The notes: generated by a model not told the origin, from the letters alone. DNA of 64,000 nucleotides from Methanothrix sp. (GCA_037128175.1 JBAXWY010000002.1:64001-128000); one strand, 5' to 3'; positions 3,329 to 16,358 are shown, numbered from the stretch's first letter. Numbers and translations are program-made.

Positions 3329-3426
3329 TGCGTCGACCGGGATTCGAACCCGGGTTGTAGGCTTGCTTCGCAGAGAATCAAAATCTGCCTGGAAGGCCCA
3401 AGTCATAACCACTAGACCATCGACGC
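3329..3426 (-). tRNA. tRNA-Gly(TCC) with 26-nt intron at position 37/38 (intron 3364-3389)
   Basis: Reverse strand reads GCGTCGATGGTCTAGTGGTTATGACTTGGGCCTTCCA[GGCAGATTTTGATTCTCTGCGAAGCA]AGCCTACAACCCGGGTTCGAATCCCGGTCGACGCA; bulge-helix-bulge with CTTC/GAAG helix; CCA not encoded. Confidence 0.95.
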
Positions 3427-9947: not shown

Positions 9948-9999
9948 TAACAGAGCAAGGCATGGTTATTCCAGCGCCCTGCAAAAGGAGGTAAGATTT

Positions 10000-10176
10000 A
10001 TGACAGTAGTAAAGAGCGACGCAATGCTGCAACATGAGGTTTGGATCCATGAGGTAGTCACTCATAGACCCAAGCATATGAGAGAACAAGTGATGCACAT
10101 CGAGGTTAGAAACCTGGTTATGGCTGCTGCTGCTATATTGATAGTAGTAATTGCTGCTGTTGAAATGTTTAAATGA
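10000..10176 (+). CDS. 58-aa protein with C-terminal TM helix
   Basis: AAGGAGGT RBS then MTVVKSDAMLQHEVWIHEVVTHRPKHMREQVMHIEVRNLVMAAAAILIVVIAAVEMFK; followed by a hairpin terminator. Confidence 0.6.
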   Translation: MTVVKSDAMLQHEVWIHEVVTHRPKHMREQVMHIEVRNLVMAAAAILIVVIAAVEMFK

Positions 10177-10180
10177 TGTA

Positions 10181-10211
10181 GGCTGAAAAGGCCGGCTTTC
10201 CGGCCTTCGCC
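10181..10211. terminator. Hairpin between convergent genes
   Basis: AAGGCCGG-CTTT-CCGGCCTT. Confidence 0.6.
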
Positions 10212-10216
10212 CTATA

Positions 10217-10675
10217 TTATTGGAATTTGCAATTGCCTGATTCGATATCATTCAAATTTTTAACAATATTTGCTTTGTGGGCATTGGATAGCTTATGATA
10301 TTCACAGATCGTCAGCACCCGGTGAAGTTCATCGCGCTGCATTGAAGCAGTATGCTGGGCAACGTACAACATTGTTTCCAGATATTCTTTCTCTTTTATC
10401 ATATTTTCAATGATCTCTAAAAAAATCGCATCAAATTTTATCCCAGAAGTACCGATATCCTTGATCACTTTTACCAGTTTTTCGCTTGACTTTTGGCTGG
10501 CCATGTTGGCGGCCAAGGCTCTTTGAGCAAAATCCAGGGACGCTTCAGAAACCCCATTCAGTATTAGTTCGGACGCGAGTTTCTTCAGGGTCTTGCTCTG
10601 AAGAATAGTTTCAGATTCCAGAGCCAGAAAGGCTTCTGGGGTTATCTCTATTTTCGTGTATTTTGGGCCAGGCAT
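10217..10675 (-). CDS. Hypothetical protein with ribbon-helix-helix-like N-terminus
   Basis: KYTKIEITPEAFLALESETILQSKTLKKLASELI fits a beta-helix-helix pattern; GAGGTG RBS upstream. Confidence 0.6.
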   Translation of the reverse strand: MPGPKYTKIEITPEAFLALESETILQSKTLKKLASELILNGVSEASLDFAQRALAANMASQKSSEKLVKVIKDIGTSGIKFDAIFLEIIENMIKEKEYLETMLYVAQHTASMQRDELHRVLTICEYHKLSNAHKANIVKNLNDIESGNCKFQ

Positions 10676-10818
10676 TTTTCTCGCGGCACCTCATTTTTCA
10701 ATCCTTATGAGTTCCTCTATATCAATACTTATTCCAGAAAACTCGAAAATGATAAATACTAAGAAAAAAGATGAATTTGGAAAAAAGGAAAAATTACCAA
10801 ATCAGGAGGAACAAGAAA

Positions 10819-10914
10819 ATGAAGATTGGTCAACAGGAGTTGGGTGTGTATCCGTTGTGGGTAGGATTTTGGGTGGCTGCCATCGTCATATCGGTACTAT
10901 TGGGTCAGACTTAA
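10819..10914 (+). CDS. 31-aa single-TM microprotein
   Basis: AGGAGG RBS then MKIGQQELGVYPLWVGFWVAAIVISVLLGQT*; below ORF-track cutoff. Confidence 0.6.
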   Translation: MKIGQQELGVYPLWVGFWVAAIVISVLLGQT

Positions 10915-11142
10915 AGGAAGAGTAATTCAAAAAGAATTCATTATCGCAGGATTCATTCCTAGGGGGATTGACCTCGAACTCATCCCTTCATCCCTATTTT
11001 GCCTGGCCAACCGAGATATTACGAATCAAAAATGCATGCACCACTACTTTTCAAAGCATGAGAAAGCACAAAGTTTATGTGGGATGCTGGATGATAGGGC
11101 CCAAGTCTAGCGTATCCGATGCCCTAAATGGAGGTGAAAAAA

Positions 11143-11253
11143 ATGCCTAACATCATGGATCAATTAATCGCTTTGGTAATATTCGGTGCGAGCACAGTCA
11201 TACTGCCATACGTGTTCAACAAATGGTCTGATAGCAGAGCAGGCGTTAGATAA
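11143..11253 (+). CDS. 36-aa single-TM microprotein
   Basis: GGAGGTG RBS then MPNIMDQLIALVIFGASTVILPYVFNKWSDSRAGVR*. Confidence 0.65.
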   Translation: MPNIMDQLIALVIFGASTVILPYVFNKWSDSRAGVR

Positions 11254-11340
11254 ACTTGTTCTTTTCGATCCTGGCTCGTGCCAGGATCTGCATTACTATT
11301 TTCTCTATTTTATCGTGTCAATCCACGAATTGGAACTCCG

Positions 11341-11400
11341 AAGTCAAACGGCAGCGGTGCACACCGTCGCCAGCAGGACGGAACATGCGAGACACAGCTG
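11341..11400 (+). repeat. Degenerate palindromic mini-element (copy of 39559-39619)
   Basis: AAGTCAAACGGCAGCGGTGCACACC...GCCAGCA...CAT...GACACAGCTG aligns with 39559-39619. Confidence 0.65.
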
Positions 11401-11642
11401 ATTAAGAATATCCTCAAATTGGTCCTTCGCGAAGAAAAATCAATAGCTTTGCTCTAAGTATATCTGAATAGGATACCATTCCCTCAATCATTATCTAGAA
11501 GCTTTACATTTTGGCGAGGCGTCGAACTCTAAAACGAGTCAGGCCGATATCCTTTGATGCGCCCTAAGCGAACGTGATCATACCTGGAATTCCATCCAAG
11601 GATAGCATTGATAAGGCCCCTGGTCCAAAAACCATTTCCTGA

Positions 11643-11810
11643 ATGACAAAAGGAAGAATGATTCATTGTATCGGCTGTGGGGCTGAGTTCTCCACGGAGG
11701 AATTATTGATCGCCTGGCTTGAGGGCAAAATCCCTAACACAATCAGCTGTCTTGTTTGTGGCAAGCTTGAATCAAATCTCATGGAAAGACAAATCAAGGC
11801 AAGGGAATAA
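11643..11810 (+). CDS. 55-aa CxxC/CxxC zinc-finger microprotein
   Basis: MTKGRMIHCIGCGAEFSTEELLIAWLEGKIPNTISCLVCGKLESNLMERQIKARE*. Confidence 0.6.
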   Translation: MTKGRMIHCIGCGAEFSTEELLIAWLEGKIPNTISCLVCGKLESNLMERQIKARE

Positions 11811-11824
11811 GACAGGTACCCAAG

Positions 11825-11880
11825 CAAAAATTCTTATACTTCCAAGCTCACGTAAACTATGCCCAACGCCATGGGTTTAC
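11825..11880 (+). promoter_or_regulatory. TATA box plus GTAAAC-N17-GTTTAC operator, copy 1
   Basis: CTTATACTTCC; GTAAAC 11852-11857; GTTTAC 11875-11880. Confidence 0.75.
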
Positions 11881-11965
11881 ACCGAAATTGTGGTGGGGTT
11901 TATCCACTATCCGGCCTACAATAGAGGGCCAGCCAAAAAAAGGTACTGGCCCTCTATTTTCTTTT
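11865..11965 (+). ncRNA. Candidate structured sRNA, copy 1 of 3
   Basis: Homologous to 13840-13945 and 14529-14625; ends in 13-bp hairpin AATAGAGGGCCAG/CTGGCCCTCTATT plus T-run; no conserved ORF. Confidence 0.55.
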
Positions 11966-12009
11966 ATCAATTTCAATTATTAATCGGCACTGCGGTTACA
12001 GCTACAGCA

Positions 12010-12056
12010 AAAGCTTAATAGTATTGTAAACCTTATTCGCGAAAAAGAGTTTACAA
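12010..12056 (+). promoter_or_regulatory. TATA-like box plus TTGTAAAC-N17-GTTTACAA operator upstream of SSS transporter
   Basis: AAAAGCTTAATA; GTAAAC 12026-12031; GTTTAC 12049-12054. Confidence 0.75.
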
Positions 12057-12074
12057 TTTCGTGAGGCATGGTTT

Positions 12075-13430
12075 ATGAATCCGGCTGCCGTCGTAATAGT
12101 AATATATTTGATGGGGATGCTTGCCATCGGCGCTTGGGGGCACCGCCTGAAAGGACTGGAGGATTTCCACCTGGCGGGGCGGAGCATAAAACTGGTTCTT
12201 CTTACAGGCACTTTCTGTGCCACCATCATTGGTGCTTCGGCAACTCTTGGCATGACGGGCCTGGGCTTCAGCAAAGGCCTGCCGGGTGCATGGTGGATGC
12301 TCTCCGGTACGGCTGGACTGCTGGTGCTGGCGACTTTTTTTGCCGAGAAAGTAAGAGCTAGCGGATGCAGCACTCTGCCCGATTTGGTAGGATCATTTTA
12401 TGGGGAAAGCGTGAGGTTTGTCGCCTCCGCTCTCATTGTTATCTCCTGGGTGGGAGTCATTGCCGTGCAGATTGTGGCCTGCGGTAAAGTTCTTGGCGCC
12501 GTATTCGGAGGAAACGAGACCCTATTCATGGCAGCATGTACGGCCGTCTTCGTGCTCTACACAGCACACGGAGGACAGGGCTCGGTGATAAGGACAGACC
12601 TGGTACAGCTCATGATAATATTAGCAGGAATAATCGTCCTGTTTTTCAGAGCATTTGAGGCAGCCGGACCCGGATTGCTCTTTCGCCAGAGCTTTCCCAC
12701 TTCGGCAGAGATGGGCGGATGGGATGTACTTTCCATGCTACTGGTCGTCGGCTCGGCGTACCTGGTCGGGCCGGATATGTATTCTCGTTTGCTCTCTGCC
12801 CATACCCCGAGAGAAGCAAAGATATCAGCGGCGATCGCAGCCGTCATTCTCATTCCCCTGGCCCTCCTGATCACATCCCTGGGCATTTTTGCCCGGTCGC
12901 TTTACCCTGGCGCATCACCTGAGCAGGCCATTCCCGTGCTCCTGACAGGGCTTCTGTCGCCCGCCACGGAAGGCCTGGTGGCCGCAGCTCTCCTGGCGGC
13001 ATTCATGTCCTCAGCAGACACTAGCCTGATGACTGCTACTTCCATTCTAACTCTGGATATTTACAGAAAGGCAAGGCCGGCTTCTGGTGAAGAGAAGCTG
13101 ATGGCCATGTCAAGGCTTTTTGTGTTAATCATAGGGCTCTTGGCTTTGGCATTAGCGGTTTCCTTGCCCAGCATCATCAAGACTCTGCTTATCGCTTATA
13201 CCGTCTTTACCAGTGGTCTGCTCTTACCGGTTATTGCCGGATTTTACAGAGAGCGGCTGGGCCTTACGCCTTCCGGCGCGCTGGGAGCGCTGCTGGGAGG
13301 CGGAGTAACTGCGATCTTCCTGGGCCAGACGTATCCTCTGCTTGGCATGACGGTCTCCGCAGCATTCCTATTCGGGGTAAGCTGGTTAGAGAGACAGTAT
13401 ACGGAGCAGGAATGCAAAAGCGTGGTTTAG
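12075..13430 (+). CDS. Sodium:solute symporter (PanF/PutP/SMVT family), candidate vitamin transporter
   Basis: DFHLAGRS, YTAHGG..SVIRTDLVQ, LAAFMSSADT; many TM helices. Confidence 0.9.
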   Translation: MNPAAVVIVIYLMGMLAIGAWGHRLKGLEDFHLAGRSIKLVLLTGTFCATIIGASATLGMTGLGFSKGLPGAWWMLSGTAGLLVLATFFAEKVRASGCSTLPDLVGSFYGESVRFVASALIVISWVGVIAVQIVACGKVLGAVFGGNETLFMAACTAVFVLYTAHGGQGSVIRTDLVQLMIILAGIIVLFFRAFEAAGPGLLFRQSFPTSAEMGGWDVLSMLLVVGSAYLVGPDMYSRLLSAHTPREAKISAAIAAVILIPLALLITSLGIFARSLYPGASPEQAIPVLLTGLLSPATEGLVAAALLAAFMSSADTSLMTATSILTLDIYRKARPASGEEKLMAMSRLFVLIIGLLALALAVSLPSIIKTLLIAYTVFTSGLLLPVIAGFYRERLGLTPSGALGALLGGGVTAIFLGQTYPLLGMTVSAAFLFGVSWLERQYTEQECKSVV

Positions 13431-13450
13431 ACGACTTTGCATTCAACGAT

Positions 13451-13505
13451 AAAGCATTTATACTTCCATGTAAATGTAAACCCGAACCAATCACATGGGC
13501 TTACA
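13451..13505 (+). promoter_or_regulatory. TATA box plus GTAAAC-N17-GCTTAC operator upstream of 52-aa protein
   Basis: AAAGCATTTATACTTCC (same string as copy 3); GTAAAC 13476-13481; GCTTAC 13499-13504. Confidence 0.75.
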
Positions 13506-13535
13506 ATTGTGCGTAATAATGAGGAGGGAAAAGAA

Positions 13536-13694
13536 ATGCAAACAAGTGGCATGGTGAGTGCAGTATTGTTTATTGGAGGTATCGCCGCGATATTCACATC
13601 AGGCGGCAATACTATGATGATGGTTATTGGGGATGTATGTGTTGCAGCCGCTGGCATAGCCATGGTTGCTTTGGGAAGCAAAAAAGCTGCCTAG
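13536..13694 (+). CDS. 52-aa two-TM microprotein
   Basis: GAGGAGG RBS then MQTSGMVSAVLFIGGIAAIFTSGGNTMMMVIGDVCVAAAGIAMVALGSKKAA*. Confidence 0.7.
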   Translation: MQTSGMVSAVLFIGGIAAIFTSGGNTMMMVIGDVCVAAAGIAMVALGSKKAA

Positions 13695-13736
13695 GTCGCA
13701 GCCCAAATATATATTTTTTGGTTTCTTGAATGAATA

Positions 13737-13757
13737 ACCCCTGGCTTGCTGCAGGGT
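13737..13757 (-). repeat. GCAAGC-loop palindrome remnant
   Basis: Reverse strand ACCCTGCAGCAAGCCAGGGGT; resembles hairpins near 39580 and 35306. Confidence 0.4.
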
Positions 13758-13839
13758 GCATCTTTTTGCAGTCATCTTTACAGAGAACTGCCGGGCCTTA
13801 TGCTATTTTGCGCGCTGCAATGATCATAAAATGCAGGTG

Positions 13840-13945
13840 AAAAGAGGATAGAGGGGGCCGGTATTCCCTTACTGGCCCCTAATTTTGGGCGGATGATGGC
13901 CAAATCGGACCGCAACGCAGCGGTTCTGTAAACCCATGCCATTGG
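13840..13945 (-). ncRNA. Candidate structured sRNA, copy 2 of 3
   Basis: Reverse strand GGTTTAC-AGA-ACCGC/GCGGT hairpin, CATCATCC, GGGGCCAGTA/TACCGGCCCC hairpin, TATCCTCTTTT. Confidence 0.55.
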
Positions 13946-13984
13946 GCAGAGTTTACATCGGCTCGGGAGTATAAATGCTTTTTC
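13928..13984 (-). promoter_or_regulatory. TATA box plus GTAAAC-N17-GTTTAC operator, copy 2
   Basis: Plus strand GTAAAC 13928-13933, GTTTAC 13951-13956, TATAAATGCTTTTT from 13970. Confidence 0.75.
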
Positions 13985-13999
13985 GTACCTTCTATCAAA

Positions 14000-14506
14000 T
14001 CAAATGTCCCGCGCCTTGATCCAAACAACGATGTTGTGGGTGTTTTTGCTCAATTTATAACCTCTGCGTCGCAGTGCAGTTCTAACACAGTCGCGGTCTA
14101 CTCCATTTATTTTCGCGATCCTGCCAATTTCAGATCTATCAAAAAATTGTAGCTGTCTGGCTTCGCATTTGGCAATATAATCCTCCAAGGAGGCGATCCT
14201 TTTGTTATGATTCATGCGTTCGCCTTCCTTACTCTTCCAGATCATTCGGCCGTGACCGTTATTGGTCAATTGATAGCCGAGCCTTCTAAGCTCACAGCGA
14301 ATTCGCTCCGGAGATAAGCCAAAACGACCTGCTATGCATTGGACCTCTCGGCGATCATAGATGCAGGATCTAAAATGGCTGCTATTTGAAAGATAAATTT
14401 CGAGGTTGTGAATAGTCTTATCAGTCTGTTGGGTTACAGGTGGGTTTACTGAATCTAAACTGGTTTTCAGTATGCACTTTGTCACATTCGCCTTGGCTGG
14501 AAGCAT
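14000..14506 (-). CDS. Hypothetical protein with two tandem winged-helix-like repeats
   Basis: YDRREVQCIAGRFGLSPERIRCELRRLGYQLTNNGHGRMIW vs FDRSEIGRIAKINGVDRDCVRTALRRRGYKLSKNTHNIVVW; start uncertain (14620, 14506, internal 14215). Confidence 0.7.
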   Translation of the reverse strand: MLPAKANVTKCILKTSLDSVNPPVTQQTDKTIHNLEIYLSNSSHFRSCIYDRREVQCIAGRFGLSPERIRCELRRLGYQLTNNGHGRMIWKSKEGERMNHNKRIASLEDYIAKCEARQLQFFDRSEIGRIAKINGVDRDCVRTALRRRGYKLSKNTHNIVVWIKARDI

Positions 14507-14528
14507 CTTTGGATGATTGGCTGTGATT

Positions 14529-14625
14529 GAGGATAGAAGGCCAGTATTCTCTTGCCGACCCTCAATCGTATGGTGGATGATGACAGAACCCCCTCCACAA
14601 TGCGGCGTAAACCTCCACATTGAGG
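14529..14625 (-). ncRNA. Candidate structured sRNA or leader, copy 3 of 3
   Basis: Reverse strand GGTTTAC, CCGC/GTGG hairpin, CATCATCC, GAGGGTCGG/CTGGCCTTC hairpin (3 G-U pairs), TATCCTC. Confidence 0.55.
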
Positions 14626-14662
14626 TGTGGTTTACAGCGCTTGGAAGTATAAATGCTTTTTC
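14607..14662 (-). promoter_or_regulatory. TATA box plus GTAAAC-N17-GTTTAC operator, copy 3
   Basis: Plus strand GTAAAC 14607-14612, GTTTAC 14630-14635, TATAAATGCTTTTT from 14648. Confidence 0.75.
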
Positions 14663-14708
14663 GCGTGTCGTGCATTTAGCACGGAAAAGAAGACGGTAGA
14701 AAAGGCTA

Positions 14709-15524
14709 TTACTCGAAGTTTTCGGGAATGGATTTGTCCAGGAAGCTGGCTATGCCTCCCGGATAATAGACCTCCAATGCATCGAGTTCCGCCATCTTTC
14801 TTGGATCAAATGAGTGCGATTTCATATATTTCTTGAACCTTTCTTGGTTCTCTTTCGAATCAATACTTCCCTGGACCAGTGGGATCTTAAGCTCCATAAC
14901 CTGATCGGGCTTGAGACCAAGGCATTTTACTCTGATATCTGCATTGCTTCCCGGTGGCTTTAATTTTGCAATCTTCGTCGCCAAATCCTGGCAAAAGAAC
15001 GCACTGCCGGAACTCAGGTCGGAGAGACAGAGAATGACGGTCGGAGAGTCGCAGCGCCGGTACAGGGCTTCGATGGCCTCCTCCGAGGCACTGCCACTGA
15101 CCGAGACGAGGGTTACGTTGTGTTTCTCACAGACAGGACCTATTAATGGATTTAGCGCGGACTTATTCAGCCAAACTTCCATGGAATTGGATCTTCTGGG
15201 AGAACTCTCCGACAAAAACACGTGCTCTCCCGGAATCTCATCCAGAATGGCATCCGTTGGAATGAAACCCAGCTTTCTTGCTTTGCTCATCCACTTGGAA
15301 AGCTTCTCGCCATCGCTATCATGGTAAGGCCGTGTGATCCGAATCTCGCCTACGAACCATCCACAAATAGGATAATCTGTCTCCTTCCTTTGCATCGCAT
15401 AGTAAAACATGGCTCGAAGCGTGGTCCTCGATCTGCCGATGTCTCTTACAAAATTACGATATACCTCTGCCAACCACCGGGACTTGGTTCGATCCGTTTC
15501 AGTATCTACAAATGGTTCGGTCAT
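14709..15524 (-). CDS. Topo VI-A/Spo11-like (winged-helix + TOPRIM) protein with degenerate active site
   Basis: TTLRAMFYY, KARKLGFIP...ILD, EVWLNKSAL, ILCLSDLSSGS, LGLKPDQV..LKIP, ELDAL; start at MTEPF assumed. Confidence 0.75.
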   Translation of the reverse strand: MTEPFVDTETDRTKSRWLAEVYRNFVRDIGRSRTTLRAMFYYAMQRKETDYPICGWFVGEIRITRPYHDSDGEKLSKWMSKARKLGFIPTDAILDEIPGEHVFLSESSPRRSNSMEVWLNKSALNPLIGPVCEKHNVTLVSVSGSASEEAIEALYRRCDSPTVILCLSDLSSGSAFFCQDLATKIAKLKPPGSNADIRVKCLGLKPDQVMELKIPLVQGSIDSKENQERFKKYMKSHSFDPRKMAELDALEVYYPGGIASFLDKSIPENFE

Positions 15525-15695
15525 ATCTGTATTTCCTATTGATGCCAAAATATATAGATTAGAGCGTTTCCGCAAGTATACCATCCGAAAATAAAAAACG
15601 AAGATTCCTGAAGGTGCTGGATGGTGCAGAAGCTTTTTGGTTATGGAGCGGATACTTAATGAGGTGGCAAGTGCATGGACCATTGAGGTTAAGCA

Positions 15696-16055
15696 TTGAC
15701 AAAAAAATTCACAGATTTAGCATCCAGCGATCTGACCAAGCTTCCCAACATTTCGGAAAATCACTTTTGCATAGGCGTAGAGCGCATTTATCTGCATCTA
15801 TTTAACGAAAAGAATATGCACTGGTATATGGCGGAGTACGGGCCGATAAGCAAGAAATTCTTCGGATTTTTCGAGAACAGGTCCGACGGGATATCCTCTG
15901 GATTTTGTAGCCAGGAGGATCTGATGAAATGGTGCAAGAAGGGCGGACCATGGGAGCCAATGGTAGATGAGAACTGGAAGCCGACGGAGGCCAGAGAAGT
16001 CCTCTCTCTGCAGGGATATATCAAAATGATGATATGCTCACCGGATATGCTGTGA
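15696..16055 (+). CDS. DUF2958-like protein (mobile-element associated)
   Basis: KLP...HLF....WYMAEY....KFFGF......SGF.S.EDL.....D..WKP pattern. Confidence 0.55.
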   Translation: MTKKFTDLASSDLTKLPNISENHFCIGVERIYLHLFNEKNMHWYMAEYGPISKKFFGFFENRSDGISSGFCSQEDLMKWCKKGGPWEPMVDENWKPTEAREVLSLQGYIKMMICSPDML

Positions 16056-16082
16056 TTTGGCTTTTTGGCTCCAGGACTTCGC

Positions 16083-16343
16083 TTATCTCATCTTGCACTT
16101 TTTGTTGTAATGAGGGCATTTGGCATTGCTGCAGACGTTCTCCTTCGCGATCTCTGTAAGCACCATCTGCATCATGTCAAGGCGGTCTATCAACGAAGCG
16201 TCTGCAGATGCGGACTCCGCCTCCGAAAGAGCTTTTGCGACTTTTTCTAGCATATCAAGGGCTAGCATTTTTTCTTTGCGAGAAACGGCAAACTCAGCCT
16301 CAATCTTTGCTAAATCTTCCTCATTCACAGGCTCCATAGGCAC
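16083..16343 (-). CDS. Hypothetical helical protein with C-terminal Cys/His cluster
   Basis: CSNAKCPHYNKKC; directly downstream of marker 12 gene. Confidence 0.7.
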   Translation of the reverse strand: MPMEPVNEEDLAKIEAEFAVSRKEKMLALDMLEKVAKALSEAESASADASLIDRLDMMQMVLTEIAKENVCSNAKCPHYNKKCKMR

Positions 16344-16358
16344 TCCTTTTTCGACTCT

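Follow-up and report, generated by a model that had tools for sequence, protein, structure and literature searches.

Putative BirA operators at the promoter of a candidate biotin symporter and at neighbouring promoters of a Methanothrix genome

In digesters, wetlands and sediments, Methanothrix and its relatives are major producers of methane from acetate. The subject of this study is a stretch of 64,000 nucleotides from the genome of Methanothrix sp. (GCA_037128175.1, JBAXWY010000002.1:64001-128000; G000:C2:64001-128000 in our own numbering of genomes and contigs), referred to below as the window; the whole genome comprises 2,964,426 bases in 98 contigs. Within 2.8 kb of this window, five palindromes of the form GTAAAC-N17-GTTTAC (A to E) lie at the promoters of a sodium:solute symporter gene and of its neighbours. 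They very likely serve as operators for BirA, a bifunctional biotin ligase/repressor whose gene lies elsewhere in the genome, and the symporter is most likely a biotin importer.

Occurrence of the palindromes and their promoters

The palindromes span positions 11852-11880 (A), 12026-12054 (B), 13476-13504 (C), 13928-13956 (D) and 14607-14635 (E). A motif search combined with dinucleotide shuffles of the window confirmed what the initial annotation had noticed, i.e. five copies at these positions with a 17-nt spacing, one of which (C) has a single mismatch (right half GCTTAC). The mean chance expectation was 0.03 matches, and none of 100 shuffles reached five. In the whole genome the exact N17 form occurs four times, always at this locus; any other spacing between 0 and 40 gives zero or one match, and the hexamer itself is present 761 times. 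With one mismatch allowed, just two extra places appeared genome-wide (C9:134 and C14:55861), the reversed control pattern giving nine. One more site belongs to this family: TTGTCAACC-N14-GGTTTACAA, the sixth, matches 17 of 18 consensus positions and lies ahead of a second symporter paralog on contig C30. The regulon is therefore not confined to 2.8 kb as had been supposed.

Sites A, C, D and E are preceded by a near-identical archaeal promoter, AAAGC-ATTTATAC-T(T/C)CC, whose TTATAC ends 12, 12, 12 and 11 nt ahead of GTAAAC, respectively; the shared box at four sites was thus described correctly at the outset, and only its distance (12-13 nt) needed adjustment. Site B has a different TATA box (TTAATA), which ends 5 nt ahead of the motif. 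The promoters and operators are listed below, with matches to the BirA consensus counted with flanks and bits taken from the genome scan described in the next section.

11826..11843, plus strand: promoter A, BRE-like (B recognition element-like) A-run and TATA box TTATAC at 11834-11839; conserved in relatives
11852..11880, either strand: operator A, the weakest of the five, 14/18
12010..12022, plus strand: promoter B, AAAGC and TTAATAGT; sequence unrelated to the other four promoters
12024..12056, either strand: operator B, TTGTAAACC-N15-aGTTTACAA, 17/18, 32.1 bits, adjoining the TATA box
13451..13467, plus strand: promoter C, AAAGC-ATTTATAC-TTCC
13476..13504, either strand: operator C, 16/18, right half GCTTAC, 22.4 bits
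13928..13956, either strand: operator D, 15/18, 16.0 bits
13965..13981, minus strand: promoter D, repeat D5, 92% identical to promoter E
14607..14635, either strand: operator E, 15/18, 19.1 bits
14643..14659, minus strand: promoter E, assigned from sequence

The TTATACTTCC segment of promoter A has five copies in the genome, three of them at this locus. Sites orthologous to operator A were found in nine genomes (G050, G051, G054, G056, G064, G069, G072, G080 and G092), the layout of operator B recurs ahead of symporter orthologs throughout the order, and operator E has a counterpart in genus g2, where homologous genes bear a 17/18 site and a TATA box at equal distance. This arrangement supports the proposal, made in the initial annotation, that the five palindromes are operators straddling the start regions of five predicted promoters.

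Of 17 spacer bases, A and D have 14 in common, C and D 11 and A and C 9; the spacers of B and E stand apart (2-6 shared with the other sites and with each other). The earlier statement that the spacers differ therefore holds for B and E, but not for A, C and D. A single promoter-operator-leader module, duplicated long ago, gave rise to A, D and E.

Match to the BirA signal

The published BirA signal is TTGTAAACC-[N14/15]-GGTTTACAA, and a half-site variant, TGTCAACC, is given for delta-proteobacteria (PMC545781). When one extra base per side is included, the Methanothrix sites read (T/c)(T/g)GTAAAC(C/t)-N15-(G/a)GTTTACA(A/n). Scored in this form over 18 positions against the published consensus, all five have an N15 spacer, and their matches decrease from 17/18 (B) through 16/18 (C) and 15/18 (D and E) to 14/18 (A).

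The genome contains a single biotin protein ligase (BPL) gene, which adjoins a biotin carboxylase open reading frame (ORF) away from this locus, and one Biotin_lipoyl acceptor gene (carboxylase subunit). The ligase is a group II BirA, since HTH_11 (E 1.6e-13, residues 4-55), BPL_LplA_LipB and BPL_C are all encoded in the one gene; the N-terminal helix-turn-helix (HTH), proposed earlier as something to look for in a BirA repressor, is thus present.

A position weight matrix (PWM) was built from 34 symporter-upstream sites, all from other genomes, and used to scan the 2.96 Mb of this one. Exactly five places were found: the two symporter promoters (34.6 and 32.1 bits), followed by C (22.4), E (19.1) and D (16.0).

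Conservation across the order and loss in one subclade

Among 105 genomes of the order, 26 contain the exact motif, and the reversed control pattern occurs once each in seven. Fifteen exact-match loci were examined in other genomes. In 11 of them the site lies 20-60 nt upstream of a symporter ortholog (Pfam identified nine of these symporters, a tenth is a fragment and the eleventh was placed by its coordinates); of the remaining four sites, two fall within the terminal part of a nitroreductase gene and another two have no assigned target. In all of 20 further genomes, representing 11 more genera, the symporter ortholog is preceded by a TATA box and then by the best palindrome (13-18/18, spacer 14-16), frequently with TGTCAACC or GGTTGACA half-sites. 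An order-wide search with two mismatches performed no better than its control and was not used.

BirA was found in 101 of the 105 genomes, and most alignments begin within the first 15 residues. In four Methanothrix genomes (G035, G044, G046 and G062) the alignment runs only from residue 56-62 onward, and a search of their whole upstream BPL frames gave no HTH_11 at E <=0.1. The operator is also absent from the symporter upstream regions of these four genomes (best 11-12/18), and it is present (16-17/18) in five genomes of the same genus with a full-length BirA. It is absent, too, from G083, whose BirA gene is split and unclear. The HTH-less subclade is represented by BirA loci L134-L137 and symporter upstream regions L138-L141. 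Judged from these sequences, a subclade devoid of both HTH and operator is a natural switch from regulated to unregulated uptake.

BirA as the repressor is consequently supported by the consensus match, the HTH_11 domain and the loss of the operator in four HTH-less genomes. As an alternative, a local winged-helix or ribbon-helix-helix (RHH) protein had been suggested; this was not supported, because the operator precedes the symporter in every genus sampled and relatives of the local winged-helix protein are restricted.

The symporter and biotin supply

12075..13430, plus strand: sodium:solute symporter, 451 aa, candidate biotin importer, PF00474 (E 1.8e-36)

The symporter matches PF00474 over its full length (profile positions 1-406 of 406). 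All eight NCBIfam subfamily models that matched it (PutP, PanF, ActP and others) scored far below their cut-offs, e.g. panF with 82.8 bits (cut-off 328) and PutP with 96.7 (cut-off 515.5), and so it falls outside every named subfamily. Orthologs are encoded in 94 of the 105 genomes of the order, and the closest relatives of the gene come from Methanothrix sp. or Methanotrichaceae metagenome-assembled genomes (MAGs).

Profile searches of this genome revealed no BioY, no BioB-type domain and no BioD above the cut-off. BioY (PF02632) is absent from all 105 genomes of the order, this one included, and a BATS domain above the cut-off was found in two of them. When the class was sampled, this family lacked BioY in all of 64 genomes, whereas 85 of 86 genomes from the four other families had it. 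At the bioY loci of the sister families, which we take to be Methanosarcina and relatives, a palindrome of at least 15/18 precedes bioY in 24 of 30 cases, mostly adjoining a TATA-like box; two of the remaining loci score 14 and four score <=12. Since one and the same operator and promoter layout accompanies bioY in the sister families and the symporter in this family, the replacement of BioY by the symporter is, in terms of comparative genomics, a non-orthologous displacement, and this is the best argument for biotin import by the symporter. The symporter is thus probably the biotin importer of a methanogen family that lacks BioY. It would be the core BirA target, in the place held by BioY in the sister families.

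The initial annotation had treated a lack of sites at biotin genes as evidence against BirA. No site lies at birA or pyc, and formally that expectation failed; it does not apply as it was intended, because the genome is without bioY and BioB, and without a BioD above the cut-off.

The second symporter paralog (G000:C30:29873-31260) is 71% identical to the first and has its own BirA-type operator, the sixth site mentioned above, immediately behind a TATA box. Upstream of the paralog is a divergently oriented ORF (~127 aa) whose start resembles a signal peptide. Both paralogs occur in part of genus g1 (also in G051 and G092). In genera g2, g3 and g7, a conserved membrane protein of ~130 aa without a Pfam family is encoded divergently from the symporter and shares the intergenic region with the BirA site (L009:889-1290, L012:1019-1411 and L013:1033-1425 on the minus strand, L010:1778-2179 on the plus strand). 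It may be a further regulon member in these three genera.

Seven distant bacterial orthologs share 39-44% identity with the symporter; one is located directly behind a same-strand BPL gene and one beside a divergent BPL-like gene. The Dehalococcoidia ortholog examined has neither a birA neighbour nor a site. A conserved ORF of ~103 aa with a coiled coil and a CxxC motif precedes distant orthologs in a Dehalococcoidia MAG (L122:219-527) and a Deltaproteobacteria MAG (L126:255-566).

Microprotein, winged-helix gene and leader units

The other four promoters are associated with the following features.

11866..11968, plus strand: unit A, predicted non-coding RNA (ncRNA) of ~100 nt, an orphan leader copy with two hairpins and a U-rich end; covariance model 104 bits
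13536..13694, plus strand: hydrophobic microprotein, 52 aa, with a strong ribosome-binding site (GAGGAGGG)
13777..13817, plus strand: relic copy of part of the symporter 3' end, 41 nt, 78% identical to 13243-13283; repeat family D2
13832..13943, minus strand: unit D, second orphan leader copy, with a hairpin and a U-rich run at its end; covariance model 81 bits
14000..14485, minus strand: tandem winged-helix protein of 161 aa; begins with GTG, where relatives have ATG
14486..14613, minus strand: non-coding 5' leader of the winged-helix gene, ~130 nt, parent of units A and D; covariance model 83.7 bits

The microprotein matched no Pfam family. It is kept in G051 and G054 (79-85% identity), and in G092 it is deleted down to its 3' end. 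The relic of the symporter 3' end downstream of the gene suggests that the microprotein module was born by local duplication or insertion.

For the winged-helix protein, AlphaFold2 (AF2) predicted the order H-H-H-E-E twice, with a predicted local distance difference test (pLDDT) score >80 over most of residues 62-206 of the long ORF and ~30 for residues 1-61. The best Foldseek matches were the tandem winged-helix proteins ScpB, ESCRT-II and SelB, and these are weak (E 6e-4, TM-score ~0.25). No Pfam match was obtained, and the best ESM Atlas value (0.79) was below the useful level. The protein has 31 homologs in a narrow clade: full-length relatives occur in part of genus g1 and in g2, and a shorter match in g3. 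Single-domain ORFs of ~80-130 aa resembling one winged-helix repeat (E ~1e-10 to 1e-15) were seen in genomes of seven genera; those in this genome (G000:C39:17768-17974 and C43:7430-7627) belong to a small-protein family without a name.

The leader module has two hairpins, separated by a conserved CA(C/U)(C/U)AUCC stretch, and closes with a pyrimidine-rich tract. Its covariance model found 30 copies in 18 of the 105 genomes, all in g1 and g2, three of them here. Outside the training set it recovered one intact copy in G070 (TATA-like box, 14/18 operator), a second cluster in G072 and a decayed copy in G082. In G072, two divergent promoter-operator modules lie ~12 kb from the main locus (L151, G072:C2:19420-20180), and the module there occupies more than one place. 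Three non-coding units had initially been proposed; the orphan units number two, A and D, and the latter is conserved in G051 and G054.

Unit A has a minimum free energy of -36.8 kcal/mol (z -3.25, none of 200 shuffles as good); for unit D (z +0.24) and the leader of E, shuffled sequences folded as well. RNAalifold kept only six pairs. The proposed two-hairpin structure was 78% paired, compared with 42-51% with slid partners, and hairpin 2 was 83% paired with four compensatory pairs; the structure as a whole did not beat column shuffles. A two-hairpin leader is plausible. Rfam 15 gave no match for units A, D and the leader of E, and across 11700-14800 just two matches, both at chance level and on the other strand (E 0.11 and 0.19). 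PHROGs and NCBIfam searches of the small ORFs returned nothing useful.

Two coding interpretations of the leaders were tried and discarded. The ATG codons inside operators D and E are equally far from the TATA box and could be taken for starts of leaderless mRNAs; this reading is contradicted by in-frame stops in the leaders of G051, G072, G001, G002 and G003, by the shifted frame in G080 and by the pLDDT of ~30. The short MGL... peptides in A, C and D are a by-product of the conserved CATGGGTTTACA, and their frames are lost in G080.

Transcription evidence

Metatranscriptome contigs were available from one freshwater study (two samples, four runs). They cover the symporter, the microprotein (depth 21-39, the highest of the locus) and the winged-helix gene, and one contig (13843-14156) reaches from the winged-helix gene across promoter D as far as the hairpin of unit D. 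Contig edges sit inside or bordering operators B, C and E: a start at 12053/12054 for the symporter, a start at 13495/13496 at operator C (two samples) and an end at 14612/14613 for the leader of E (three runs). These edges are a weak hint that transcription starts within the operators.

Alternatives and points that weigh against the assignment

Several observations count against BirA control and biotin import, or narrow them. These are: (i) the compared genomes are related, and the genome counts therefore overstate independence; (ii) the genome scan detected no BirA-type site at birA, at pyc/carboxylase or at any classic biotin gene; (iii) none of the seven distant bacterial symporter orthologs has an upstream BirA-like site (best 9-11/18); (iv) the closest subfamily scores of the symporter are those of the proline and pantothenate symporter models, and another vitamin or a biotin precursor is thus a possible substrate; (v) operator A fell below the PWM threshold, and BirA occupancy at A, C, D and E is less certain, since these sites are weaker than the symporter sites and A is under the threshold; (vi) no RNA contig covers unit A (11908-12011), the contig ends lie 38-40 nt past the first T of the TATA box, which is beyond the usual archaeal distance, and the evidence for starts amounts to just a weak hint because contigs cannot prove transcript ends and come from a single study.

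Point (v) leads to the alternative that BirA controls both symporter promoters only, and that the palindromes at A, C, D and E are passengers of a duplicated module, are too degenerate for BirA to occupy and leave their units constitutive. These four sites are alike in promoter, spacer and leader, their PWM scores are 16-22 bits or below threshold (vs 32-35 bits at the symporter sites), decayed copies exist (the operator is shortened in G082 and the microprotein unit deleted in G092) and the microprotein transcript has the top contig depth in environmental RNA. However, the GTAAAC half-sites and the N17 spacing are exact in orthologous copies of several species in which the flanks vary, the g2 winged-helix homologs have the strong 17/18 site at equal distance, and the further copy in G070 has retained its TATA-like box and 14/18 operator. 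On balance, we regard mere passengers as unlikely.

According to a second alternative, the tandem winged-helix protein (14000-14485, minus) would itself be the repressor, regulating its own gene and controlling its neighbours as a local regulon. Its predicted fold, the operator on its own promoter, the clustering of four near-identical promoters out of five around its gene, and a 24-residue stretch like the wing region of the BirA HTH (pair E 0.039) would all fit such a role. Against this, strong matches to it (E <=1e-29) are limited to 11 genomes of g1, g2 and g3, and genera g4, g5, g8, g9, g10, g12, g13, g14 and g16, in which the operator is present, have none at E <=0.001. The local protein cannot explain the pattern, because it has no match in these nine operator-bearing genera. 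Moreover, operator loss tracks the loss of the BirA HTH, the palindrome is a widespread BirA signal that stands on bioY in the sister families, and one chain with two tandem domains would be a poor fit to a symmetric inverted repeat. This makes self-regulation by the local protein highly improbable, and the conservation of the operator, its co-loss with the HTH and its placement on bioY in the sister families point to BirA instead.

An inverted repeat acting in RNA, as a hairpin of the 5' transcript, scarcely deserves credence: GTAAAC and GTTTAC could pair, and the spacer of site E lengthens the stem, yet the element is symmetric regardless of gene orientation and lies directly 3' of TATA boxes, symporter-site spacers vary between genera with no retained stem, and the left arm would be untranscribed if the RNA contig starts at B, C and E, which fall within the palindrome or at its 3' edge, are taken at face value (a weak argument).

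Proposed regulation

With ample biotin, BirA would hold biotinyl-5'-AMP, dimerise and occupy both half-sites, by analogy with bacterial BirA. Because each operator covers the start of the transcript or the gap that separates it from the TATA box, bound BirA would be expected to exclude RNA polymerase. Archaeal repressors with sites adjoining the TATA box are known, which fits blocked polymerase recruitment. When biotin is scarce, the adenylate would be spent on the apo-carboxylase, BirA would leave the DNA and the promoters would become active, so that low biotin would free the symporter plus the extra units. To judge from their PWM scores, release would come first, or repression be looser, at the weaker sites A, C, D and E.

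In this Methanothrix lineage, BirA control would have spread to four near-identical strong promoters with weaker operators, which would drive the membrane microprotein, the winged-helix protein with its leader, and two orphan leaders with terminator-like hairpins. Winged helices of SelB or Roquin bind RNA stems. By analogy, the BirA-repressed winged-helix protein could bind the conserved hairpins of its own leader, and the orphan small RNAs (sRNAs) A and D, freed by the same loss of BirA repression, could titrate it or hit other targets. This would add, in part of Methanothrix, a second regulatory layer below BirA, a speculative scheme to which we attach a low probability. If it were true, an archaeon would signal biotin starvation by way of protein and RNA together, with unit A as the first small RNA that responds to biotin.

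Neighbourhood of the locus

The genes around the locus, among them MtrH and methanogenesis marker 12, are those expected in a methanogen. The regions 9950-12074 and 13431-16350 have a low G+C content (0.42 and 0.46, respectively, vs 0.53 for the window) and contain ORFs without a family of 152 aa (10217-10675), 119 aa (15696-16055) and 86 aa (16083-16343); a CxxC protein of 55 aa, also without a family, is encoded at 11643-11810. A 324-aa ORF (14709-15683, minus strand) matched a phage family labelled 'DNA topoisomerase' (E 5.4e-11). The low-G+C stretch may reflect an ancient insertion, flanked by a CxxCxxCC-domain gene on one side and methanogenesis marker 12 on the other. An integrated mobile element with its own repressor was considered in view of the low G+C content and the phage-like neighbour, yet it is not needed, because the operators are a family-wide BirA signal.

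The sole Rfam match in the window at gathering score is a tRNA at 3329-3426 (minus strand, 98 nt, 54.1 bits), and ARAGORN reports none. Its length of 98 nt suggests an intron-bearing archaeal tRNA.

Significance

From the distribution of biotin genes, the whole order is predicted to be unable to make biotin and to depend on a BirA-controlled sodium symporter of a subfamily without a name, and the methanogen family studied here appears biotin-auxotrophic. A biotin requirement of a thermophilic Methanothrix strain was looked for in a literature search and none was found. The symporter is a candidate new prokaryotic biotin importer, and vitamin dependence could affect both growth in consortia and cultivation. 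As an archaeal BirA regulon, the locus would combine a clearly laid out promoter, a natural loss-of-function control and new predicted regulon members without a known biotin link. Full-text literature searches turned up no published account of this regulon. Rodionov, Mironov and Gelfand reportedly predicted BirA sites in archaea in 2002, as told in papers citing them, and that work may list some of the archaeal targets.

Comparison with known systems

With the bacterial BirA/bioO regulon the locus shares the palindrome and its spacing class, the TGTCAACC variant included. Further likenesses are a group II BirA with an N-terminal winged HTH, whose presence the sites track, and a site that overlaps the promoter of a vitamin uptake gene, which here is a candidate one. 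It differs in that (i) the promoter is archaeal, with the operator 3' of the TATA box, (ii) the target is a sodium:solute symporter and not a bio gene or bioY, (iii) extra targets without a known tie to biotin are present (the microprotein, the tandem winged-helix protein and the orphan leader RNAs) and (iv) birA itself is without a site.

The bioY promoters of the sister families provide the nearest parallel, a TATA box and then the palindrome upstream of a transporter gene (24/30 loci); the transporter there is BioY, whereas here, with BioY in 0/105 genomes, it is a symporter of another superfamily. The animal sodium-dependent multivitamin transporter SLC5A6 (SMVT) and the bacterial sodium/pantothenate symporter PanF belong to the same superfamily as the Methanothrix protein (PF00474), members of which carry biotin or pantothenate with sodium; there is no close kinship, and the substrate proposed here follows from regulation and gene context alone. 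Taken together, and on the strength of sequence comparison, the palindromes are a real signal, BirA is very likely the right reading of them, and the system would be a variant of the known BirA system.

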